The translations under genes were made by a program, and so were the position numbers. The notes below the pieces were generated by a model. The model saw only the letters and a program-made list of their open reading frames with translations. It ran no database searches and had not been told where the DNA came from. A stretch of DNA of 63,750 nt, filler included, from Licmophora abbreviata (Eukaryota), in the NCBI GenBank assembly GCA_900291995.1. It is 9 parts of 9 records of this genome, joined end to end, with 100 filler letters (N's around TTAATTAATTAA, not from the genome) between each part and the next. Parts side by side here need not be neighbours in the genome. Positions count along the whole stretch, not along the records: positions 11,022 to 15,196 come from OLMU01005324.1; 8 more parts are not named here. One strand, 5' to 3'. Of the stretch, positions 8,059 through 18,518 are shown piece by piece; positions within the stretch are counted from its first letter, which is position 1, and each line of letters starts with the position of its first letter.

Positions 8059-10380
8059 TCACTCTTCGGCAAAGTCGACTGACAAGAAGCCCTTCTCTTG
8101 AAATTCCCGAGGGACCTCTGTATTCTTGATCGAGCGAAAGTTGCCCACGCGGTAACCAGCTATCCACAACCGTGCTGCTTCGTCGGATATGCGATCATTG
8201 TCAAACACGGTCGTCGGGTACAACTCGCATTCCGAAACCACGTATTCAACCTCATTGATTCGATCCTCCATAGTTGCCCCCTCTCGCCACGACGGCGAGG
8301 CAGAATTCACCCCTACGAGCACATCCGTTCGAAACATATCCTTGTGGGCTCCCAGCCGCTCGGCAATACTCACGAGATGCGGCCAGTCCACCCAATCAAA
8401 CGGCATTTTGTCGTTCTCGCCACCCAGCGCAAAGGTTCCATTCCGATAGATCCAGCCACCACGACCCACGTGACGGTTCTTGACATACCTCATCTGCCCT
8501 GCGTAGACACGTCCCCATATAGTGAAGATATTAAACTCGATCGGCGGTCGGTCGAACCTATCAAGCTCCACATATCGCTCTTCCACGACTATCCCAGGTT
8601 TCACATTCTTTAGCGCCCAAGACTCATGCCTCTTCGCCTTTGCCTGGAGGTTATTGGCAAGCGCTTGTGCGACCTGGCGATTACTGAAAGAAGCTTGATT
8701 ATTAGCTTCTTTCAGCTGACGTGCGTCGGAGGTAAACATAGTCTTGTTTGATGTCTGGTTGTGGCTGATAAGCCACACGCCCGTCGTTTCGGAATGATGA
8801 CTCGGCTTGGCAACATAGTCCGCCACGTTTGGTAGCAAATCTAGAATGAGCTGCTCTTCATCGTTTAGTTCACCTCTGTCCGTGAGTTCGAACCCATACT
8901 GAAGAGCGTACAAGGGCGGCTGATCGATCCCGATAGTCGGCAGCCAGCGTTTGCGTGCAACCTTGTCCACATAGAAACTTAGTGAAGGTCTCTCTAAGAC
9001 ATTGCGATAGTCGAGAATGTCCTGCCATGCCTCGTTTCCATGAATCAAGTGAGACATATCGAAATCCTCGTACAGTAGGAACGGCGGTTCTGTGTGCCCC
9101 TCTTCTAGCTGTTGTGCATCTGTTGACAGCTTGAATTGAGCCAAATTGATGCCTGCCACCTCGTAGTCAAACAGAGTCCAGTTGTTTGTAGTCCACACCA
9201 GAGTCGCTCTTGTCGCAGCCAAGATGCCTTTGTATAGCGTAGATATATACTGCCATATCAATTCTTTTTCCTGAAAAGGCACACTGACTAGATAGGTGGC
9301 GTCGGGATCGATGACTTCCGCCAAATGTTCCAGACGCTCCCTTTCAAGTTGCAGCAGCTCCATCGCACGCGACGAAGGCGGATGGCCGTCAACCCACGCT
9401 ACTGTATTTGGACCACCACGGTGGCTACTATCGAAATCAAAGTCGACGGAATGAGTTGTATTGGTGGTGGCGTGATCGTTCATGCGAATCGAAAACCGTC
9501 TTGGATACTGTTCCAGGAATCCGAACGATCGAAAGAAAAGTGCTGTTCCGATAGGGTTGCCTAGGCCATAGGAGACATAAATTTCATCTCCAGCCTCCAG
9601 ATCTTCAGGAAACACCCCAATTTTGATGTCTTTCCCCACCTCCGACTCCATGATGCGAGTGTTGTATCGCACTCCGTCGCGGTGGTTGTATGCGGGATAC
9701 AAAGGAAGTAAACCGCTCTGATGCGTCGTTCCCGACGGCGTCAGAAACGCCGGCGATGGGTCCGTGACGGAGATCGTCAACGCTTCAAGCAAGATGGGAT
9801 CAGTCTTGTCATAGTCCCCGCAATGATTTGTCCACCATTCCAGTGGCCGTTGGAAGTCTTGCGGTGGTAAGTTTCCGCCCAGCACAGCCTTCAGCAAGTC
9901 TTGGCCCTCTTGCGACCACCCCAGCAGGGGCTTTCGGCCCAACCCTCGCAGCATACGGAGGTGCGGCGCGTATTTGGAGGAGCAAGTTTCATTCCAACAG
10001 TCCAGCTGCATCAGTTCTCGCTTGGCTGCTCGCACACTCTCGCACGGGTCGTCCTGTTCAGGATCGTCCGGGGAAAGCACGAGATCGTACGGAATGGAAG
10101 CCAGAATTGTGCCTTTTGGAATGTGCTCCGTCGCGAACATGCCGTAGTACTTGAAATAAGAATCGTACTGGATCTCCTGTCGCTTGTCGACTCTACCGCC
10201 ATTCTCTCGGATCCAGGTCATGACATCTCGAACGAGCTGAGGGTATCCATCATCCGTATCCAGCTCGTATCCTTTCTCCGAGTGGAACTCATCGTCCGAG
10301 ACCGTCAGCGCACTCGCTCCCGGAAGAGCGAGAGCTACAGTGAGACAGAGCAGCAGTATCTTGATACAAGCAGCGACCAT
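8059..10380 (-). CDS. Secreted SET-domain methyltransferase / TupA-like ATP-grasp fusion, copy 2 (intact)
   Basis: 773-aa single ORF. Signal peptide (…PGASA/L), SET motifs GMFATEHIPKG, YNHRDG and EAGDEIYVSYG, and a C-terminal ATP-grasp with YVDKVARK, YVAKPSH, GIVVEERY, EFNIFTIWG, MFRTD and SECELYP. Confidence 0.85.
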   Translation of the reverse strand: MVAACIKILLLCLTVALALPGASALTVSDDEFHSEKGYELDTDDGYPQLVRDVMTWIRENGGRVDKRQEIQYDSYFKYYGMFATEHIPKGTILASIPYDLVLSPDDPEQDDPCESVRAAKRELMQLDCWNETCSSKYAPHLRMLRGLGRKPLLGWSQEGQDLLKAVLGGNLPPQDFQRPLEWWTNHCGDYDKTDPILLEALTISVTDPSPAFLTPSGTTHQSGLLPLYPAYNHRDGVRYNTRIMESEVGKDIKIGVFPEDLEAGDEIYVSYGLGNPIGTALFFRSFGFLEQYPRRFSIRMNDHATTNTTHSVDFDFDSSHRGGPNTVAWVDGHPPSSRAMELLQLERERLEHLAEVIDPDATYLVSVPFQEKELIWQYISTLYKGILAATRATLVWTTNNWTLFDYEVAGINLAQFKLSTDAQQLEEGHTEPPFLLYEDFDMSHLIHGNEAWQDILDYRNVLERPSLSFYVDKVARKRWLPTIGIDQPPLYALQYGFELTDRGELNDEEQLILDLLPNVADYVAKPSHHSETTGVWLISHNQTSNKTMFTSDARQLKEANNQASFSNRQVAQALANNLQAKAKRHESWALKNVKPGIVVEERYVELDRFDRPPIEFNIFTIWGRVYAGQMRYVKNRHVGRGGWIYRNGTFALGGENDKMPFDWVDWPHLVSIAERLGAHKDMFRTDVLVGVNSASPSWREGATMEDRINEVEYVVSECELYPTTVFDNDRISDEAARLWIAGYRVGNFRSIKNTEVPREFQEKGFLSVDFAEE

Positions 10381-10921: not shown

Positions 10922-11750
10922 NNNNNNNNNNNNNNNNNNNNNNNNNNNNNNNNNNNNNNNNNNNNTTAATTAATTAANNNNNNNNNNNNNNNNNNNNNNN
11001 NNNNNNNNNNNNNNNNNNNNNAGGTCTTTCATATGAGCTATGAAAAACATGATAAATTTATGAGTCCCGCAATCCCATTTGGCATGCCTCTTGTTAGCAG
11101 CTTCAATGATGGCTCTGCTGAATGGGATCGCGGGATAATGGGATTGGAGGTGTTTACGGCTCTCTGAAAAAGCTTCTTCCAGCGTCAGTGATGCGACCGA
11201 TTCCAGTACAAAACCTACGGCAGAGTTTTGTACTCCGGCTGACGGCCAGAAAAGGTGAATATGTAGGACGATGAGAACCCATCATTGTTTGACCTGCATC
11301 GCCATTCGTCAATGGGTATGGGGAGTGAGAGAAACAAGCTGATTGTCGAGGACTGTAAGAAAGAGAAAGGCCGCTACCAAGCAGCATGGACGGGTGGGCT
11401 CCTCGAGTCCGCCCGGGGAACCAATACCTGGTACATTCCAAGATCGTGGAGGCGAATGCCTCTGTGAGAACTGCCTTCACGCGACTGAGCTTGCATCTAA
11501 TACGCAGTCATGGTCCTAACTGTCAAATGACCAACTATGCGATTCCTGAGAAGATCTGTTGCACAACTTTCGAGTGGTGTTGTCGACTTGGGATTCTATT
11601 TTCTGTTTGACAGCCTCGTCTATGCTTTCTGTCGTCTCGGTCCAAATAGCGTTCCTGTAGGCTACCAATACTCCTAGTTATTGTGAAAGGAGCTCGCGGA
11701 CGACGGCAGATATAATACGACAGAAACTTGTCCTGTGCAAACCCTGTAGT

Positions 11751-12590
11751 TTACACGTTCATGAGCGAATAGTTGGATCCCGCAGTGGTGCCCCTCGACG
11801 CTTGGTTTGTCTTGCCAACTTTGACATAGCGACGTCGGCACAAGGACAAGCTCCAGACAGTCACAAACAAAATGGGCGTTACCACTAGCAACGACAAGGC
11901 TGACACTATTGCCGTTTCAGCTGGTCGATTCTTCCACGACAACGACTCGTAGATACTGTCGTCGTCGGTTTCGACATCTCCATCTTGACGAAGCGGATTG
12001 CCAATGTCAGCGTAGGCGTGAACGACGGTCCAAATCAAGTAAAGCGCCGAGAAAATAATGACAAAGACACAATGCTTCAATCGAATCGGAATCTTGTTGA
12101 TGACAAGTCCCTCCAGGACTATCAACACGGCAAAGCCCCCGTGCTTCATATAGCTCTCGTATGTGACGTTGTGGTCGGGTGAGTACTCCACGATCCAGAA
12201 CAAGGCCGTCACAACCAGTTCGGTGCAAGCGGCCGTCGAGAACAGACCCCACACCAATCGAACGACGAAAGTAGGTCGCGGCTCGAAGCCAGTTGGCTGC
12301 TCGGGAATACCAAACAGCGTCAAGACAAAGGAAAGCACAAAGTAGAGTATCGAAATCGCGAACGCCCAGTGTGTAAGATAGGCCAAGTAGAACTGAGGAT
12401 AGCTGTAGGCGTACAAGTCTAGGCCTAAAACTTGGAGGGCCCAGCCTGTGAAGAGAAGTTTGGCGAGAAAAGAAAGCCAGAATGGCTTACGGTTGAAAGT
12501 GGACTCGACGTCAATTGTCTTGTCCTGGAAGTCTTTCACTCCAAAGAAGGAGAGCTTCCAATCGTCTCGGACTGGACCAAAACAGGGCAT
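11751..12590 (-). CDS. Multi-pass membrane protein, FAR-17a/AIG1-like (rolling-stone-like)
   Basis: About six TM helices, YLAYLTHW motif, HG motif and a D-S-I-Y-x-x-L-S-W segment. First ATG at 12590. Confidence 0.7.
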   Translation of the reverse strand: MPCFGPVRDDWKLSFFGVKDFQDKTIDVESTFNRKPFWLSFLAKLLFTGWALQVLGLDLYAYSYPQFYLAYLTHWAFAISILYFVLSFVLTLFGIPEQPTGFEPRPTFVVRLVWGLFSTAACTELVVTALFWIVEYSPDHNVTYESYMKHGGFAVLIVLEGLVINKIPIRLKHCVFVIIFSALYLIWTVVHAYADIGNPLRQDGDVETDDDSIYESLSWKNRPAETAIVSALSLLVVTPILFVTVWSLSLCRRRYVKVGKTNQASRGTTAGSNYSLMNV

Positions 12591-13011: not shown

Positions 13012-15099
13012 ATGAGAAACGATTGGAGTGCCAGCCGTCTGAGCCTTGTCGCTCTCGTTGTCCTGCAAGTTGGCGTGGTGCGTTCGATTCGGGCATCTCG
13101 AATTGATTTCGATCGCGATACCAGCACCGTTTATCTAGCTTCCACGGCCGTTTTTTTAACCGAGATTCTCAAGTTAGCCATTAACCTTCTTCTTGAACGT
13201 CAACAACTGGCTCGAAAGAACCAGGAACGAACGTGGCCAAACAAGAGAGTCGATCTCTGTTCGGGCCTCTTGTCGAACGATGGACTCAAGCTCGCGATAG
13301 TACCCGCTCTATTCTACGTGGTCCAAAATACGTTCGAGTATATCGCCTTGACTCATTTGACAGTGCCACTGTATCAAATTACAAACCAGGGCAAGCTGCT
13401 AACGATGGTACTCTTCCGTCGGATCCTACCAAGACAACACCAGCTCCTCTCTCCCAACCAATATTTGGCCCTGTTCCTTTTGGCGCTGGGAGTCGCACTT
13501 CAGCTGTACTCCATGCTGGGGCGCGAACAGGTACCGCAACAGGACTATACGCAGAGTCGTGTGGTTGGATTTCTTGCCATGTGTGTGGCGTGCATCGCAT
13601 CAGGATTCGGCAGAGTGTACTTTGAAAGGCTCCTCGCGGAACCACTCGTCTCGGTGTATATCCGGAACAGCCAAGTAGCACTGTGGAGTATTCCATTCGC
13701 AATGATGGGCATATTGAGTGACCTTGACAAGATAAAGGATGTCGGACTTTTTCAGGGATACAGTAATGCCCTCGTCTGGACGGTGATTCTTTCTCAAGCC
13801 GTCTATGGACTCGTGGTATCACTTGCCACGAAGCACGCCGTTTCTGGTCTCCATGGCTTGGGAGTGTCTATATACATTGTGTTCGCTGCCATGTGCACGA
13901 CGGTCATCTGGGGTGTCTCCCACTGGAACGCTTGGTATGTGTGGGTCGGCGCAGTCCTTATCCTGTACTCGGTGCGACTCTTTTATAAACACCCGGCGGC
14001 AGCAGAACTGTCGGCAAACGAGGAGAAAGGGCATCCCTACCGGTCTACCGCAAAAGTCCCAGGAAAGAGGCACCGGCATGCTCTTCTACTCCTTGTATTC
14101 GCACTCCTATTCGTTCAATTGCTAATTCAGACGATGCGACTGAGTAAAGATACAGCCAGCGTCCGAGCGCGCATTGATCAGGAGAGAAGGAATCAGCGAT
14201 GGAGAGGCCGCGTACTGAAACATCCCTTCTGGGAACCGCCGACGCTTATGCTTGGCAATCGCACGCTTCAGAAGAGCCAAGGAATCCGTCCTGCGACTAC
14301 ATGCTCGTACAGATCTATTCCAGCTGACACCGAATGGAGCCACCCAGGTTACACTGGTTACTCGTCGTGCATGTGGTACCACTGTAGTAGAGATGTTGAA
14401 CAGTGCGACAATACGTTGTCTACTACCTTTGATGGTCCGGATCCGCCATGTTGTAGCCATCTCATGAGAGACATGGCCGCTGCCGTTGACGAAGTCATGT
14501 GTTCCTTAGGGCTGGTCTACATGGTGGAGTGGGGCTCGCTGTTGGGATTGGTCAGGTCGGATCGATTCATACCGTGGACCGGCGATCACGATATCACAAT
14601 GACGAGATCCACAATGGCAGCATTGTGGGCGCTGCGGAACGAAGGCACGCTTTCAAAGCATGGTCTTGCGATGGTTTCTGACTCTAACTTCCGATTCTGT
14701 ATCTCTCCGACGTTTGCAAAAGGGAAACTTCAGCGGTGGGAGATGAAGAGACCATGGTCGAGCTATGTAACGGAACCCGAGCAGTGGTGGTTAACAGAGA
14801 ACTTCTTGTACACGGACGTTGGTTGGACTGGTCTGACCGAAGATGATCTGTATTTCGGTCCGGGGGCGGTCCGTTTCTTGCCGGAAGATGTGTATCCTCT
14901 GGTACGGAGGCCTGTGTACAACGGCACGTTTTACGTCAACTTTCCGCACAATTCCGAAGCGATGTTGAGCATTGGCTATGGGCCAGACTGGGGTACGCCG
15001 GACGCGAGGCAAAAGAAGCATGGCGACCCCGCCTATTTGAAGCATGCGAATCGAAGCATGCTAGTCGATATTCAGCGAGGCGGTCAATTGCCATCTTGA
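13012..15099 (+). CDS. SLC35A-type nucleotide-sugar transporter fused to a LicD-family phosphotransferase
   Basis: N-terminal ~325 aa have STAVFLTEILKL, VPALFYVVQN, YQITNQGKLLT, SGFGRVYFE, IRNSQ and GLFQGY. An extra TM is followed by a Cys-rich lumenal region and the LicD motif WGSLLGLVRSDRFIPWTGDHD…YGPDWGTPD. One uninterrupted 695-aa ORF. Confidence 0.85.
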   Translation: MRNDWSASRLSLVALVVLQVGVVRSIRASRIDFDRDTSTVYLASTAVFLTEILKLAINLLLERQQLARKNQERTWPNKRVDLCSGLLSNDGLKLAIVPALFYVVQNTFEYIALTHLTVPLYQITNQGKLLTMVLFRRILPRQHQLLSPNQYLALFLLALGVALQLYSMLGREQVPQQDYTQSRVVGFLAMCVACIASGFGRVYFERLLAEPLVSVYIRNSQVALWSIPFAMMGILSDLDKIKDVGLFQGYSNALVWTVILSQAVYGLVVSLATKHAVSGLHGLGVSIYIVFAAMCTTVIWGVSHWNAWYVWVGAVLILYSVRLFYKHPAAAELSANEEKGHPYRSTAKVPGKRHRHALLLLVFALLFVQLLIQTMRLSKDTASVRARIDQERRNQRWRGRVLKHPFWEPPTLMLGNRTLQKSQGIRPATTCSYRSIPADTEWSHPGYTGYSSCMWYHCSRDVEQCDNTLSTTFDGPDPPCCSHLMRDMAAAVDEVMCSLGLVYMVEWGSLLGLVRSDRFIPWTGDHDITMTRSTMAALWALRNEGTLSKHGLAMVSDSNFRFCISPTFAKGKLQRWEMKRPWSSYVTEPEQWWLTENFLYTDVGWTGLTEDDLYFGPGAVRFLPEDVYPLVRRPVYNGTFYVNFPHNSEAMLSIGYGPDWGTPDARQKKHGDPAYLKHANRSMLVDIQRGGQLPS

Positions 15100-15296
15100 C
15101 GGCTGTGGGGAGTATTCTGCGGCATCAATTACGGTCGACTAAACAGTATGGAGAATCAAACGCCGCTACGAGTGACGCGCCATCACCGCCTCTCAGNNNN
15201 NNNNNNNNNNNNNNNNNNNNNNNNNNNNNNNNNNNNNNNNTTAATTAATTAANNNNNNNNNNNNNNNNNNNNNNNNNNNNNNNNNNNNNNNNNNNN

Positions 15297-18200
15297 TTTG
15301 AACGCATGTCCGAAGACTGCATCGGTGCTATCGTGACGGCACAGAAGGAAAGCTACAAGCTCGGACTACAGGAGGTCGGTCCTGAAGTGCTCTGGGCTGG
15401 CGTGGTCGATCGACCCGAAAAAACAAAGTCGACCTTGACACAGTATGGTGTAACTTGGAGAAAGACACTGCAGGTGCTGCAGGAAATGTTCCGAGACGAG
15501 CAACCAGAACGGGCAGGGCTGACTGCCTTCTTATCGGCGAAGAAAAAGGATGACTTGCCGTTCAGTAAAAAGCTCAAAAAGTACATGATTGACGCTGGAA
15601 AGCTGGCCGACAAGATGGAAAGCACGACGATTCATTCGGAACATGTACTGCTAGCTATTTTGGAGTATGATGCCGATGCGAATACAGCAGCTGTTCCAAA
15701 TGAGGATGACCGAGTCTGTGGGGGGCTGGCTGTGCTGCATCGTGTGGTGGATCCGGAACTTTCGGCATTGGATTTCTGTACAGCTCTCCTCAACAACATG
15801 AAGGACGAGCAATCGAATGAAGCCGAGTTGGTGGCGACGGGAAGTCCGTCGGGAAGCAAGAAGACTCCGACATTGGAAGAGGTTGGAATCGATCTCACAC
15901 TGCTGGCCAAGCAGGGACAGCTAGATATCGTGGAAGGACGAGAAGACGAGATTCGTATGTGTCTACGTACCCTTATTCGACGACGAAAGAACAATCCGTG
16001 TCTCATGGGAGAACCAGGGGTCGGTACGTATCGAGGAGCGAGGGCGCAATTACACCATTAAGTGTTCCAATGAGTCCACCCTCACGTTTCGTCGTTCTTC
16101 CTCATTCCTACAGGTAAGACAGCAATCGCGGAAGGTATCGCACAGATTGTCGCGGATCCCGAAAAGTGTCCCCCGAAACTGCAGGGGTATCGCATTGTAT
16201 CGCTGGAGCTGGCGAATCTCGTGGCAGGCACGAAATACCGCGGTGAGTTTGAAGAGCGGATCCAGGCTATTCTGCAGGAAGTCATGGATGAAAAGGCGCC
16301 TCCGACGATTCTCTTTATCGACGAGATCCATAATTTGGCCGGAGCTGGTAGTGCAGAAGGTGGGGGCCTCGATGCTGGTCAGATTTTCAAACCGGCCTTG
16401 TCGCGCGGGCAGTTACAACTCATAGGCGCAACGACCATTGCAGAGTATCGAAAATACATCGAGAAGGATGCAGCACTGGAAAGAAGGTTTCAGCCACTGA
16501 TGGTCAAGGAGCCCAGCACTGAACAGACAATGAGTATCCTGGCAGCCATCGCTCCGCGGTACGAGAAGCATCATGGAGTCAAGTATTCGCCAGAGAGCTT
16601 GGAGGCAGCTGCAAAGTTAAGTGAACGCTACATAACAGATCGATTCTTGCCGGACAAGGCGATCGATCTGTTAGACGAGTCGGGTGCGTTGATGCAAATG
16701 GATGCTGAGGAAGACGAGACCCCTACGTAACGGAGCACACAGTGGCAACTATCTTGTCCGAATGGACTTCGATTCCTATCGGCAAGCTTGAAAGGGGTGA
16801 AATGGATAGACTTCAGAATTTGGAGGCTGAAATGACAAATCGTGTGAAAGGTCAGGGACGAGCCGTTCGAGCGGTTTCACGCGCAGTAAGACGTGCTCGG
16901 AGTGGATTACGAGATACTCGACGACCGATCGCTAGTTTCTTGTTCTGCGGTCCAACGGGAACGGTGAGTGGATAGATTGGGCGGTTCTGTCTCTATTCGA
17001 CGAATGTGATAACTCATAGCGTGGCTGCATCTATATTATAGGGCAAGACAGAGCTTTGTAAAACGTTGGCGGCGACGTACTTTGGAAGCGAGAAGGATAT
17101 GATCCGTATCGACATGTCCGAATACGGCGAAAAACACACCGTCAGTCGGCTGACAGGCCCCCCTCCAGGTTACATTGGATATGTAAGTCAAGCGCGCCGC
17201 TGTTGGAGGCTGTATGATAAGGTGATTGTCGTCTCTTACTGTTTCTATCTTTTCAAACCTGCACGACAATCTATATAGGAAGAGGGCGGTCAACTGACCG
17301 AGGCCGTTCGTCGTAGTCCGCATGCCGTGGTACTGCTAGATGAGCTGGAAAAAGCGCACAGCGATGTCCTCAACATTTTGCTTCAAATCATGGAGGATGG
17401 AATGCTTACCGACGGCAAGGGACGAACTGTGAACTTTAAGAATACAATTCTGGTCATGACCTCGAATGTCGGAAGCAAGCGAATCTTGGATGTGTCTCGA
17501 GGTGAAACTTGGAGAAGTTCGGCGACGCCCGATAGCGACTCACCGCCCATTTCTGAAAGGGACGTGTCCTCCATTGAACCGATGCGACCAGATGAGGTTT
17601 TGTCGAAGATGCAGAACAATCCGGCTGCCATGTCACTAATGATGGAAGCAGCTTCCGATCCAGATCTCATGGGCGCTATGCAGACAGCCATGGGTGGCTC
17701 TCCTGCAGACTTGCTCAAGGCGGGTCGAAGCAATCCAAAGGTTGCAGAGTTCCTGCGAAAGCTGTGGCATGTCATTGACACAGGGAGTGATGTCGCAAGG
17801 GTGCCGTCTCCACCTGCTAACGGTAAGAAGCAGCCCAAGTCGGCCATAGAAGATGCCGTGTCGAAATGGACAGCCGGTTCGGCCGAGAAATTCGCATCTG
17901 GCTTGGTAGAAAAGATTGAAGGCATGATTCCGTCGGGATCGAAAGACGGAAGTAACACAGCAGGGCAGACGGCCAATGAAAAACTGTACTTGGACATGTC
18001 AGCTGTCGTCAAGGAAGAGCTTGAGGCCAGTATGAAACCTGAATTGCTGAATCGAATGGACGAAATTGTAATCTTCTCGCCGCTATCCTCCGAAGACTTG
18101 ACGATGATTGCCGGCCTTCTTCTTCAAGACACGGTCCGACGTGCTAAGGAGGAATGCCAGATGGAACTTACAGTCAAGCAGGCGGTTATAGATCAAGTCA

Positions 18201-18518
18201 GAGATGAGGGAAGCGTGAACGCCTCGCAGTTTGGCGCCCGTCCCATGCGACGGGCGGCGCAACGGTTCTTGGAAGATACAATCAGCGACGCAATCGTTCG
18301 AGGCTTTTCTCGGAGAAGGTGATTCTGCCTCTGTTGACCTAGCCAGTGTTGCAGTGGATGGTACATGTACAATATTACTAACTCGGGAGGACGGAATGAC
18401 GCTCGAAGTCCAAGTCGAAGACGGAAGTGGTGGTATTGGCTCTGTGGTTCAGGGGAGGGGCGTTGCGTCGAGCATCAACGGAGAGGTGACCCCCCAAACA
18501 GAGACGGTTGGACTATAG
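15297..18518 (+). CDS. clpC: ClpC/ClpB-type AAA+ chaperone (5'-truncated by gap; 3 introns; 2 apparent 1-nt frameshifts)
   Basis: FERMS Clp-N start, [59 protein letters not shown] and FGARPMRR. Introns at 16024-16113, 16964-17041 and 17183-17278. Frame changes at ~16722 and ~18306. Confidence 0.88.

Follow-up and report, generated by a model that had tools for sequence, protein, structure and literature searches.

The window analysed here is a stretch of 63,750 nucleotides from Licmophora abbreviata (assembly GCA_900291995.1), in which nine contigs are joined by N-linkers. Positions 13012–15099 on the plus strand, on which all features of the gene described below also lie, hold an uninterrupted ORF of 695 aa that starts at the first ATG past an in-frame stop. 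The ORF is carried on a single 4,175 bp contig (OLMU01005324.1, C5324) with N-linkers on either side (10978–11021 and 15197–15240). From the N- to the C-terminus, an SLC35A-type transporter is followed by an 11th helix, a stem, and an FKRP-like domain. The initial annotation had read the locus as one ORF with a transporter, an extra transmembrane helix, and a LicD domain, and this is borne out by the Pfam matches and by the helix at aa 357–375.

A divergent neighbour on the minus strand (11751–12590), 421 bp from the start of the fusion, encodes a 279-aa multi-pass membrane protein, for which neither a Pfam match at E 0.1 nor a match in any other fetched locus was found. The neighbouring contigs carry a Clp-type chaperone gene in exons with a Clp_N match (15306–18322) and a SET-domain-like ORF (8059–10380); N-linkers lie between these genes and the fusion, so they are unlinked to it by sequence.

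Transporter, Eleventh Helix, and Enzyme Domain

The SLC35A-type nucleotide-sugar transporter domain, with ten predicted membrane helices, occupies aa 10–324 (13039–13983), where the Pfam profile Nuc_sug_transp (PF04142) matches from position 8 to 314 of 315 with an E-value of 2.3e-53. A sequence search among solved structures matched it to the mouse CMP-sialic acid transporter 6oh4 (E 5e-27), Foldseek matched its model to 6oh3 (target TM 0.82), and all ten helices are present in the full-length model. Mouse residue numbers used below are taken from the alignment to the mouse CMP-sialic acid transporter. The equivalents of K55, Y98, N102, K124, S188, F195, and N210 are kept in this copy, the phosphate-binding Lys124 being K128 of this gene. 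His281 (13852–13854) stands at the position of Lys272, which is Lys in 17/17 other rows covering the column, including that of the paralogue and every other fused row. Lys272 has been described as phosphate-coordinating; PMC8192872 describes it as conserved among all SLC35A members. Arg201 (13612–13614) replaces Gly192, which belongs to the listed glycine pair Gly189/Gly192 of the transporter (PMC6709370) and is Gly in 12/12 other fused or split rows. In this copy, Thr128 is also replaced by Met and Asp268 by Val, and the paralogue keeps all four residues. Thus, the transporter, at first called complete, is so in length, whereas conserved residues have been lost in this copy. The fusion shares with the SLC35A subfamily (SLC35A1, the UDP transporters SLC35A2/A3, and SLC35A4) the ten-helix fold and most pocket residues; it differs by the 11th helix and the enzyme added at the C-terminus and by Ala in place of Tyr214, to which this copy adds the changes at Lys272 and Gly192.

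A basic linker (aa 327–356; 13990–14079), probably cytosolic, leads to the 11th hydrophobic helix (aa 357–375; 14080–14136), which corresponds to the type II anchor that standalone relatives carry and has the highest mean hydropathy of the whole protein (2.46). It is followed by a putatively lumenal stem of 77 aa (aa 376–452; 14137–14367) modelled with low confidence. Exactly one extra hydrophobic segment, of hydropathy 1.39–2.67, is present in 12/12 fusions, and 3–13 N-glycosylation sequons lie past it in 11 of them, the twelfth being the cut paralogue. The stem measured from helix 11 to the CC of the zinc finger varies from 81 to 233 aa in length across the 12 fusions. Neither this copy (K/R 6 vs 6) nor the paralogue (8 vs 9) shows a positive-inside bias. 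The ten transporter helices would bring the chain back to the cytosol, and helix 11 would then take the enzyme into the lumen. The lumenal position first proposed for the LicD domain holds as a prediction; like the architecture itself, it is strengthened by the recurrence of the fusion across further genomes and transcriptomes.

The FKRP-like domain of the nucleotidyltransferase fold comprises aa 453–668 (14368–15015), as delimited by the model and the fold search. The original LicD label is upheld by PF04991, which matches aa 500–547 at 35 bits (cut-off 22.6) over profile positions 5–51 of 227 only; the alignment and the fold match refine it to a specifically FKRP-like domain. Most relatives of the domain score below the PF04991 cut-off. 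In the sequence search among solved structures, the enzyme half matched FKRP with an E-value of 2e-6. The domain model, built on a 76-row alignment, has a mean pLDDT of 91; its best match among 48,161 chains searched with VIA-align is FKRP 6kaj (Z 14.0, rmsd 3.8, 173 aligned residues), followed by a match at 8.5, and FKRP takes all of the top 12 Foldseek rows (6kal, E 5.8e-7). In the ESM Atlas, the enzyme domain matches LicD clusters at 0.96, and the whole fusion P0042 scores just 0.75–0.76.

Cysteines C458, C465, C480, and C481 (14383–14454) align with C289, C296, C317, and C318 of the FKRP zinc finger (PMC6965139) and are kept in 68, 74, 75, and 69 of the 76 rows, respectively. All cysteines of this C4 loop, which is six residues shorter than that of human FKRP, are present, and the loop is a predicted zinc site. 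W507-G508-S509 represents the hG[GS] motif of the fold. The DxD, noted earlier as appearing in the form GDHD, is indeed found at aa 524–527, where D525-H526-D527 (14584–14592) is intact; D525 and D527 correspond to FKRP D362 and D364, and their equivalents are Asp in 76/76 rows. D602 (14815–14817; 74/76 rows) is likely the third catalytic Asp (FKRP D416), an assignment made by conservation and position on model strand E174–182, without superposition. FKRP Asp360, called indispensable in PMC6965139, is replaced by T523, and this position is Thr in 74 rows and Ser in 2. The position of FKRP R295, the acceptor-phosphate contact, is variable, with Gln464 here and Arg in 14/76 rows. The N-terminal stem domain of FKRP (oligomerisation and acceptor binding) is absent: the FKRP match starts at residue ~285–291, and aa 376–452 match nothing in FKRP. 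Human FKRP (PDB 6kaj–6kan) thus has in common with the fusion the fold, the C4 cysteines, the hG[GS] motif, D362/D364, probably D416, and a type II-like anchor with a stem ahead of the domain; unlike it, the fusion is joined to a transporter. Because the D360 position is Thr or Ser in every row, R295 is not conserved, and the FKRP stem domain is missing, the enzyme half is not an FKRP orthologue, though it probably works as FKRP does.

Two cysteines are absent both in this gene and in the paralogue (L005, 2–568): one kept in 72/76 relatives (aa 620 in the window's ORF) and a second, nearly invariant one at the C-terminus (~aa 679). Their joint loss suggests a disulphide.

Fused, Split, and Standalone Relatives

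Among 1.84 billion representatives searched, 132 matched at E < 1e-10. All fetched proteins and loci were pooled, and those covering at least 165 profile positions, collapsed at 92% identity, yielded 121 enzyme rows. The transporter lies in the same chain in 11 of them, i.e., in this gene and ten others (seven full length, three cut at the N-terminus). The fusion is thus represented by ten further sequence clusters and by a paralogue in the own genome. The P0065 cluster contains four mmetsp-sourced ORFs of 751–754 aa named Transcript_, at least one of them marked 'type:complete'; the mmetsp source we take to be transcriptome assemblies. As for the full-length cDNA that had been called for, these ORFs provide support at cDNA level for a relative's fusion and not for the present copy. 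The diatom Thalassiothrix antarctica is the source of one relative of the enzyme domain, and the own genome has several silicon transporter genes (11 matches, best E 2.5e-212), both of which make a diatom host likely. Three tandem silicon-transporter matches with open frames of up to 1,334 aa lie on its contig C845 (1790–6079).

The ORF is 34% identical to the full-length fusion P0001 over 723 columns and collinear with it across aa 2–671, and its linker is homologous to that of the paralogue on C445; together, these two facts support the intronless structure claimed at the outset. An assembly or gene-model artefact, in which two genes or separately spliced products were taken for one ORF, is hardly credible and already largely refuted. 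The assembly is fragmented (7,734 contigs), and reads from four sequencing runs cover the ORF in low-depth tiles; among the tiles listed, none crosses 14321–14387 and no single read-derived contig reaches from the transporter to the catalytic core. However, the identical architecture recurs in the ten further clusters, in the transcript-derived ORFs, and in the paralogue with its homologous linker. The linker also has no donor-like word GTRAGT/GTRCGT, a weak test, as the whole ORF has one, at 13078. No indel is among the read variants listed inside the ORF, and six of the nine listed there are synonymous (p ~0.01), which is weak evidence as depths are 2–5.4 and errors are possible.

Most copies of the enzyme stand alone. 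No transporter was found in the same record in 110 of the 121 enzyme rows (many of which are fragments) or in 19 of the 22 loci whose upstream sequence extends for 2 kb or more, and among 49 loci two are fused and two split. Since standalone type II enzymes are in the majority and some fusions are split, the fusion is not obligatory, and the enzyme generally works unfused. No standalone copy was found in the own genome assembly, which is incomplete. For some relatives, the direction of change can be read. In loci L017 (2173–4368) and L018 (2537–4732), intact halves lie in one frame with a single TGA between them (L017 3325–3327), identical in both contigs, which may be a nonsense allele, ongoing fission, or a stop that is read through. 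P0016, P0189, and P0068 retain the first ~12 residues of the transporter followed directly by helix 11, as would result from an internal deletion or from a splice form omitting the transporter. P0002 and C4180 of the own genome keep helix 11 and end ahead of the enzyme. P0009 and P0018, apparent standalones, are truncated calls of fusions.

A search confined to longer proteins (854–2435 aa), which was no survey of fusions, revealed two unrelated architectures. The enzyme domain also occurs with a long C-terminal domain (P0028), at the end of a 1,218-aa protein (P0050), as a tandem pair (P0014), and in a distant Phytophthora relative with PF03935 (P0201). For both P0075 (fused) and P0188 (standalone), the longest contig listed is 18,285 bp, possibly owing to a tandem partial duplication.

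On the phylogenetic tree of transporters, ten fused and three split sequences are separated from five plain transporters, the only outgroup, with 99/99 support; the long-branched C645 was left out. Transporter and enzyme distances across nine fusions are correlated (r 0.81, p 0.0005), and the same five fusions form one clade with a support of 100 in both the transporter and the enzyme trees. In the enzyme tree, which was built by a quick method, fused and standalone rows are interspersed; the fused label requires 11 changes, no fewer than in shuffles, and this fits repeated loss as well as repeated gain. Repeated independent fusion inside the clade is a possible alternative history. Given the single clade of fused transporters and the correlated distances of the two halves, one old fusion fits best.

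Drift of This Copy, Donor, and Proposed Mechanism

The paralogue on C445 runs in one frame from the transporter to the CC of the zinc finger and stops at the contig edge, and C446 opens with the remainder of an enzyme domain (65% identity); we infer that the two are one gene. The contig numbered just before it, C444, carries a plain SLC35A2-like transporter gene near its end (15324–16376). In the relative-rate test, the transporter of this copy has 55 changes against 13 in the paralogue (p 2.7e-7), i.e., it evolves about four times faster. Across four outgroups, its private changes number 54–57 against 13–18 (p < 1e-5). No such difference separates the enzyme halves (11 vs 12, 8 vs 11, and 8 vs 12). 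Of 100 columns invariant in seven other fusions, this copy breaks 32 and the paralogue 18, and the end branches in the transporter tree are 1.42 and 0.26, respectively. Judging from these rates, the transporter of this copy has been re-specialised or is decaying after duplication, with the enzyme staying constrained. The paralogue's transporter has kept a canonical pocket. This copy is the least safe member of the family for a role in donor supply because its transporter evolves fast and has lost the equivalent of Lys272.

The architecture of the fusion, its conservation, and the catalytic motifs of the fusion family are matters of observation. We read them as a conserved, likely diatom family, in which the fusion is predicted to lie in the Golgi or ER membrane; its lumenal enzyme would import-dependently use a donor, in all likelihood a UDP-sugar, to add a phosphate-linked group to a glycan. 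To this reading as a whole we assign a probability of roughly 0.6. The transporter half would bring in NDP-X, and the enzyme half would move X-phosphate onto the glycan and free a nucleoside monophosphate. The products of CDP-ribitol cleavage by FKRP are CMP and ribitol-phosphate (PMC6965139), and SLC35A-type transporters swap the donor against a nucleoside monophosphate (PMC6536626). By analogy, because a reaction of the FKRP type yields the transporter's own counter-substrate directly, the cycle could close without a lumenal diphosphatase. The initial annotation had suggested that the fusion may channel a donor. That an importer is usefully paired with an enzyme consuming its donor still holds as an argument and likewise gains from the conservation of the fusion, whereas strict channelling is not supported, given the variable stem, the pTM of 0.41 in the full-length model (11-row alignment), and the standalone majority. 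Since the stem is 81–233 aa long and the model defines no contact between the halves, the coupling is most likely loose, and would consist in co-location and raised local concentration on a flexible stem, with no tunnel. It is possible, but doubtful, that the fusion is a one-chain machine for import, transfer, and export, in which the tethered enzyme is fed by the transporter and the freed nucleoside monophosphate directly powers the next round of import; such a machine would make an undescribed phosphodiester-linked diatom glycan and be the ancestor of the standalone diatom enzymes.

In the transporter pocket, Tyr214 and Ser261 mark cytidine selectivity, and UDP transporters have Gly and Ala there (PMC8192872). 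The Tyr214 position is Ala in 10/10 fused rows (Ala223 in this gene). At the Ser261 position, six of the ten rows have Ser, namely this gene (Ser270), C445, P0042, P0055, P0065, and P0183, and the others have Ala (P0001, P0005, and P0191) or Gly (P0075). This gene thus has Ser261 and lacks Tyr214 of the cytidine-selective pair of the A1/A4 type. Because Tyr214 is missing from the pocket, a UDP-sugar donor giving a sugar-phosphate product is favoured; the assignment is not clean, since Ser261 is kept in six rows including this one. The donor might instead carry choline, ethanolamine, glycerol, or ribitol on CDP, like the donors of bacterial LicD and FKRP, in which case the fusion would mirror the human SLC35A1/A4–FKRP pair. 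FKRP is the sole close fold match, SLC35A1 and SLC35A4 import CDP-ribitol (PMC8192872), and the own genome has eight matches to the cytidylyltransferase-like PF01467, at family level only. We nevertheless consider a CDP-linked donor unlikely in view of the missing Tyr214, the nearest named relatives, which bear automatic names of UDP-sugar transporters, and yeast MNN4, which shows that a sugar nucleotide can serve enzymes of the LicD family (PMC2794190). The ISPD_C profile (PF18706) had no match anywhere, the controls likewise giving none.

Whatever the donor, the fusion could be incidental, giving two Golgi proteins a common anchor and promoter, with an enzyme that does not use the transporter's cargo. 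The prevalence of standalone enzymes and the breakage of fusions (the in-frame TGA of L017/L018, P0002, and C4180) agree with this; against it, the fusion is kept across lineages whose transporters are only 33–52% identical, its halves are co-inherited, and the fused transporters have a pocket signature of their own (Y121N/S, G256T/S/Y, Y214A), so we regard it as quite improbable. A proposal that concerns this copy alone, and can be reconciled with the family-level explanation, is that its transporter has lost all or nearly all activity and does no more than anchor the protein in the membrane and direct its sorting, with the paralogue or other transporters supplying the donor. To this we give somewhat less than an even chance. 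It would account for K272H, G192R, T128M, and D268V, for the broken invariant columns and the long end branch, and it has parallels in the fission and deletion of the transporter among relatives. However, the reading frame is unbroken, the ten helices are all present, and seven pocket residues from K55 to N210 are retained, and the pairwise dN/dS between this copy and the paralogue is ~0.24 in the transporter, a value that averages both branches with dS near saturation; speculatively, R201 might make up for the charge lost at H281. For the family, donor import by the transporter half remains our preferred reading.

In the mammalian SLC35A1/SLC35A4 and FKTN/FKRP pathway, the same two families act in series, with an importer feeding a phosphotransferase (PMC8192872), but the genes are separate, the donor is CDP-ribitol, and the acceptor is dystroglycan, whereas the fusion is a single chain. 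In the bacterial lic locus, LicB, which has the fold of the fusion's transporter half, is linked to LicD by operon organisation instead of fusion and, as indicated by structure titles, imports choline, a precursor rather than an activated donor. Among the domain partners that PMC2794190 names for LicD/fukutin are GT2 and NAD(P)-binding domains, and transporters are not in that enumeration. No report of a transporter–FKRP-like fusion was found in the open full-text literature searched, and the architecture may already stand in a database such as InterPro or CAZy. Both families are known; their fusion is real and conserved, and apparently undescribed.

In human dystroglycan synthesis, the two families are encoded separately and act one after the other; the fusion links them and offers a single-chain system for asking whether it matters that transporter and transferase are physically coupled. 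The fused transporter gives a handle on the enzyme's donor, and the natural fused, split, and deleted variants, together with the diverged duplicate, are ready comparisons. For diatoms, it brings to light a large FKRP-like enzyme family, mostly missed by the Pfam cut-off, which hints at phosphate-linked decoration of glycans.
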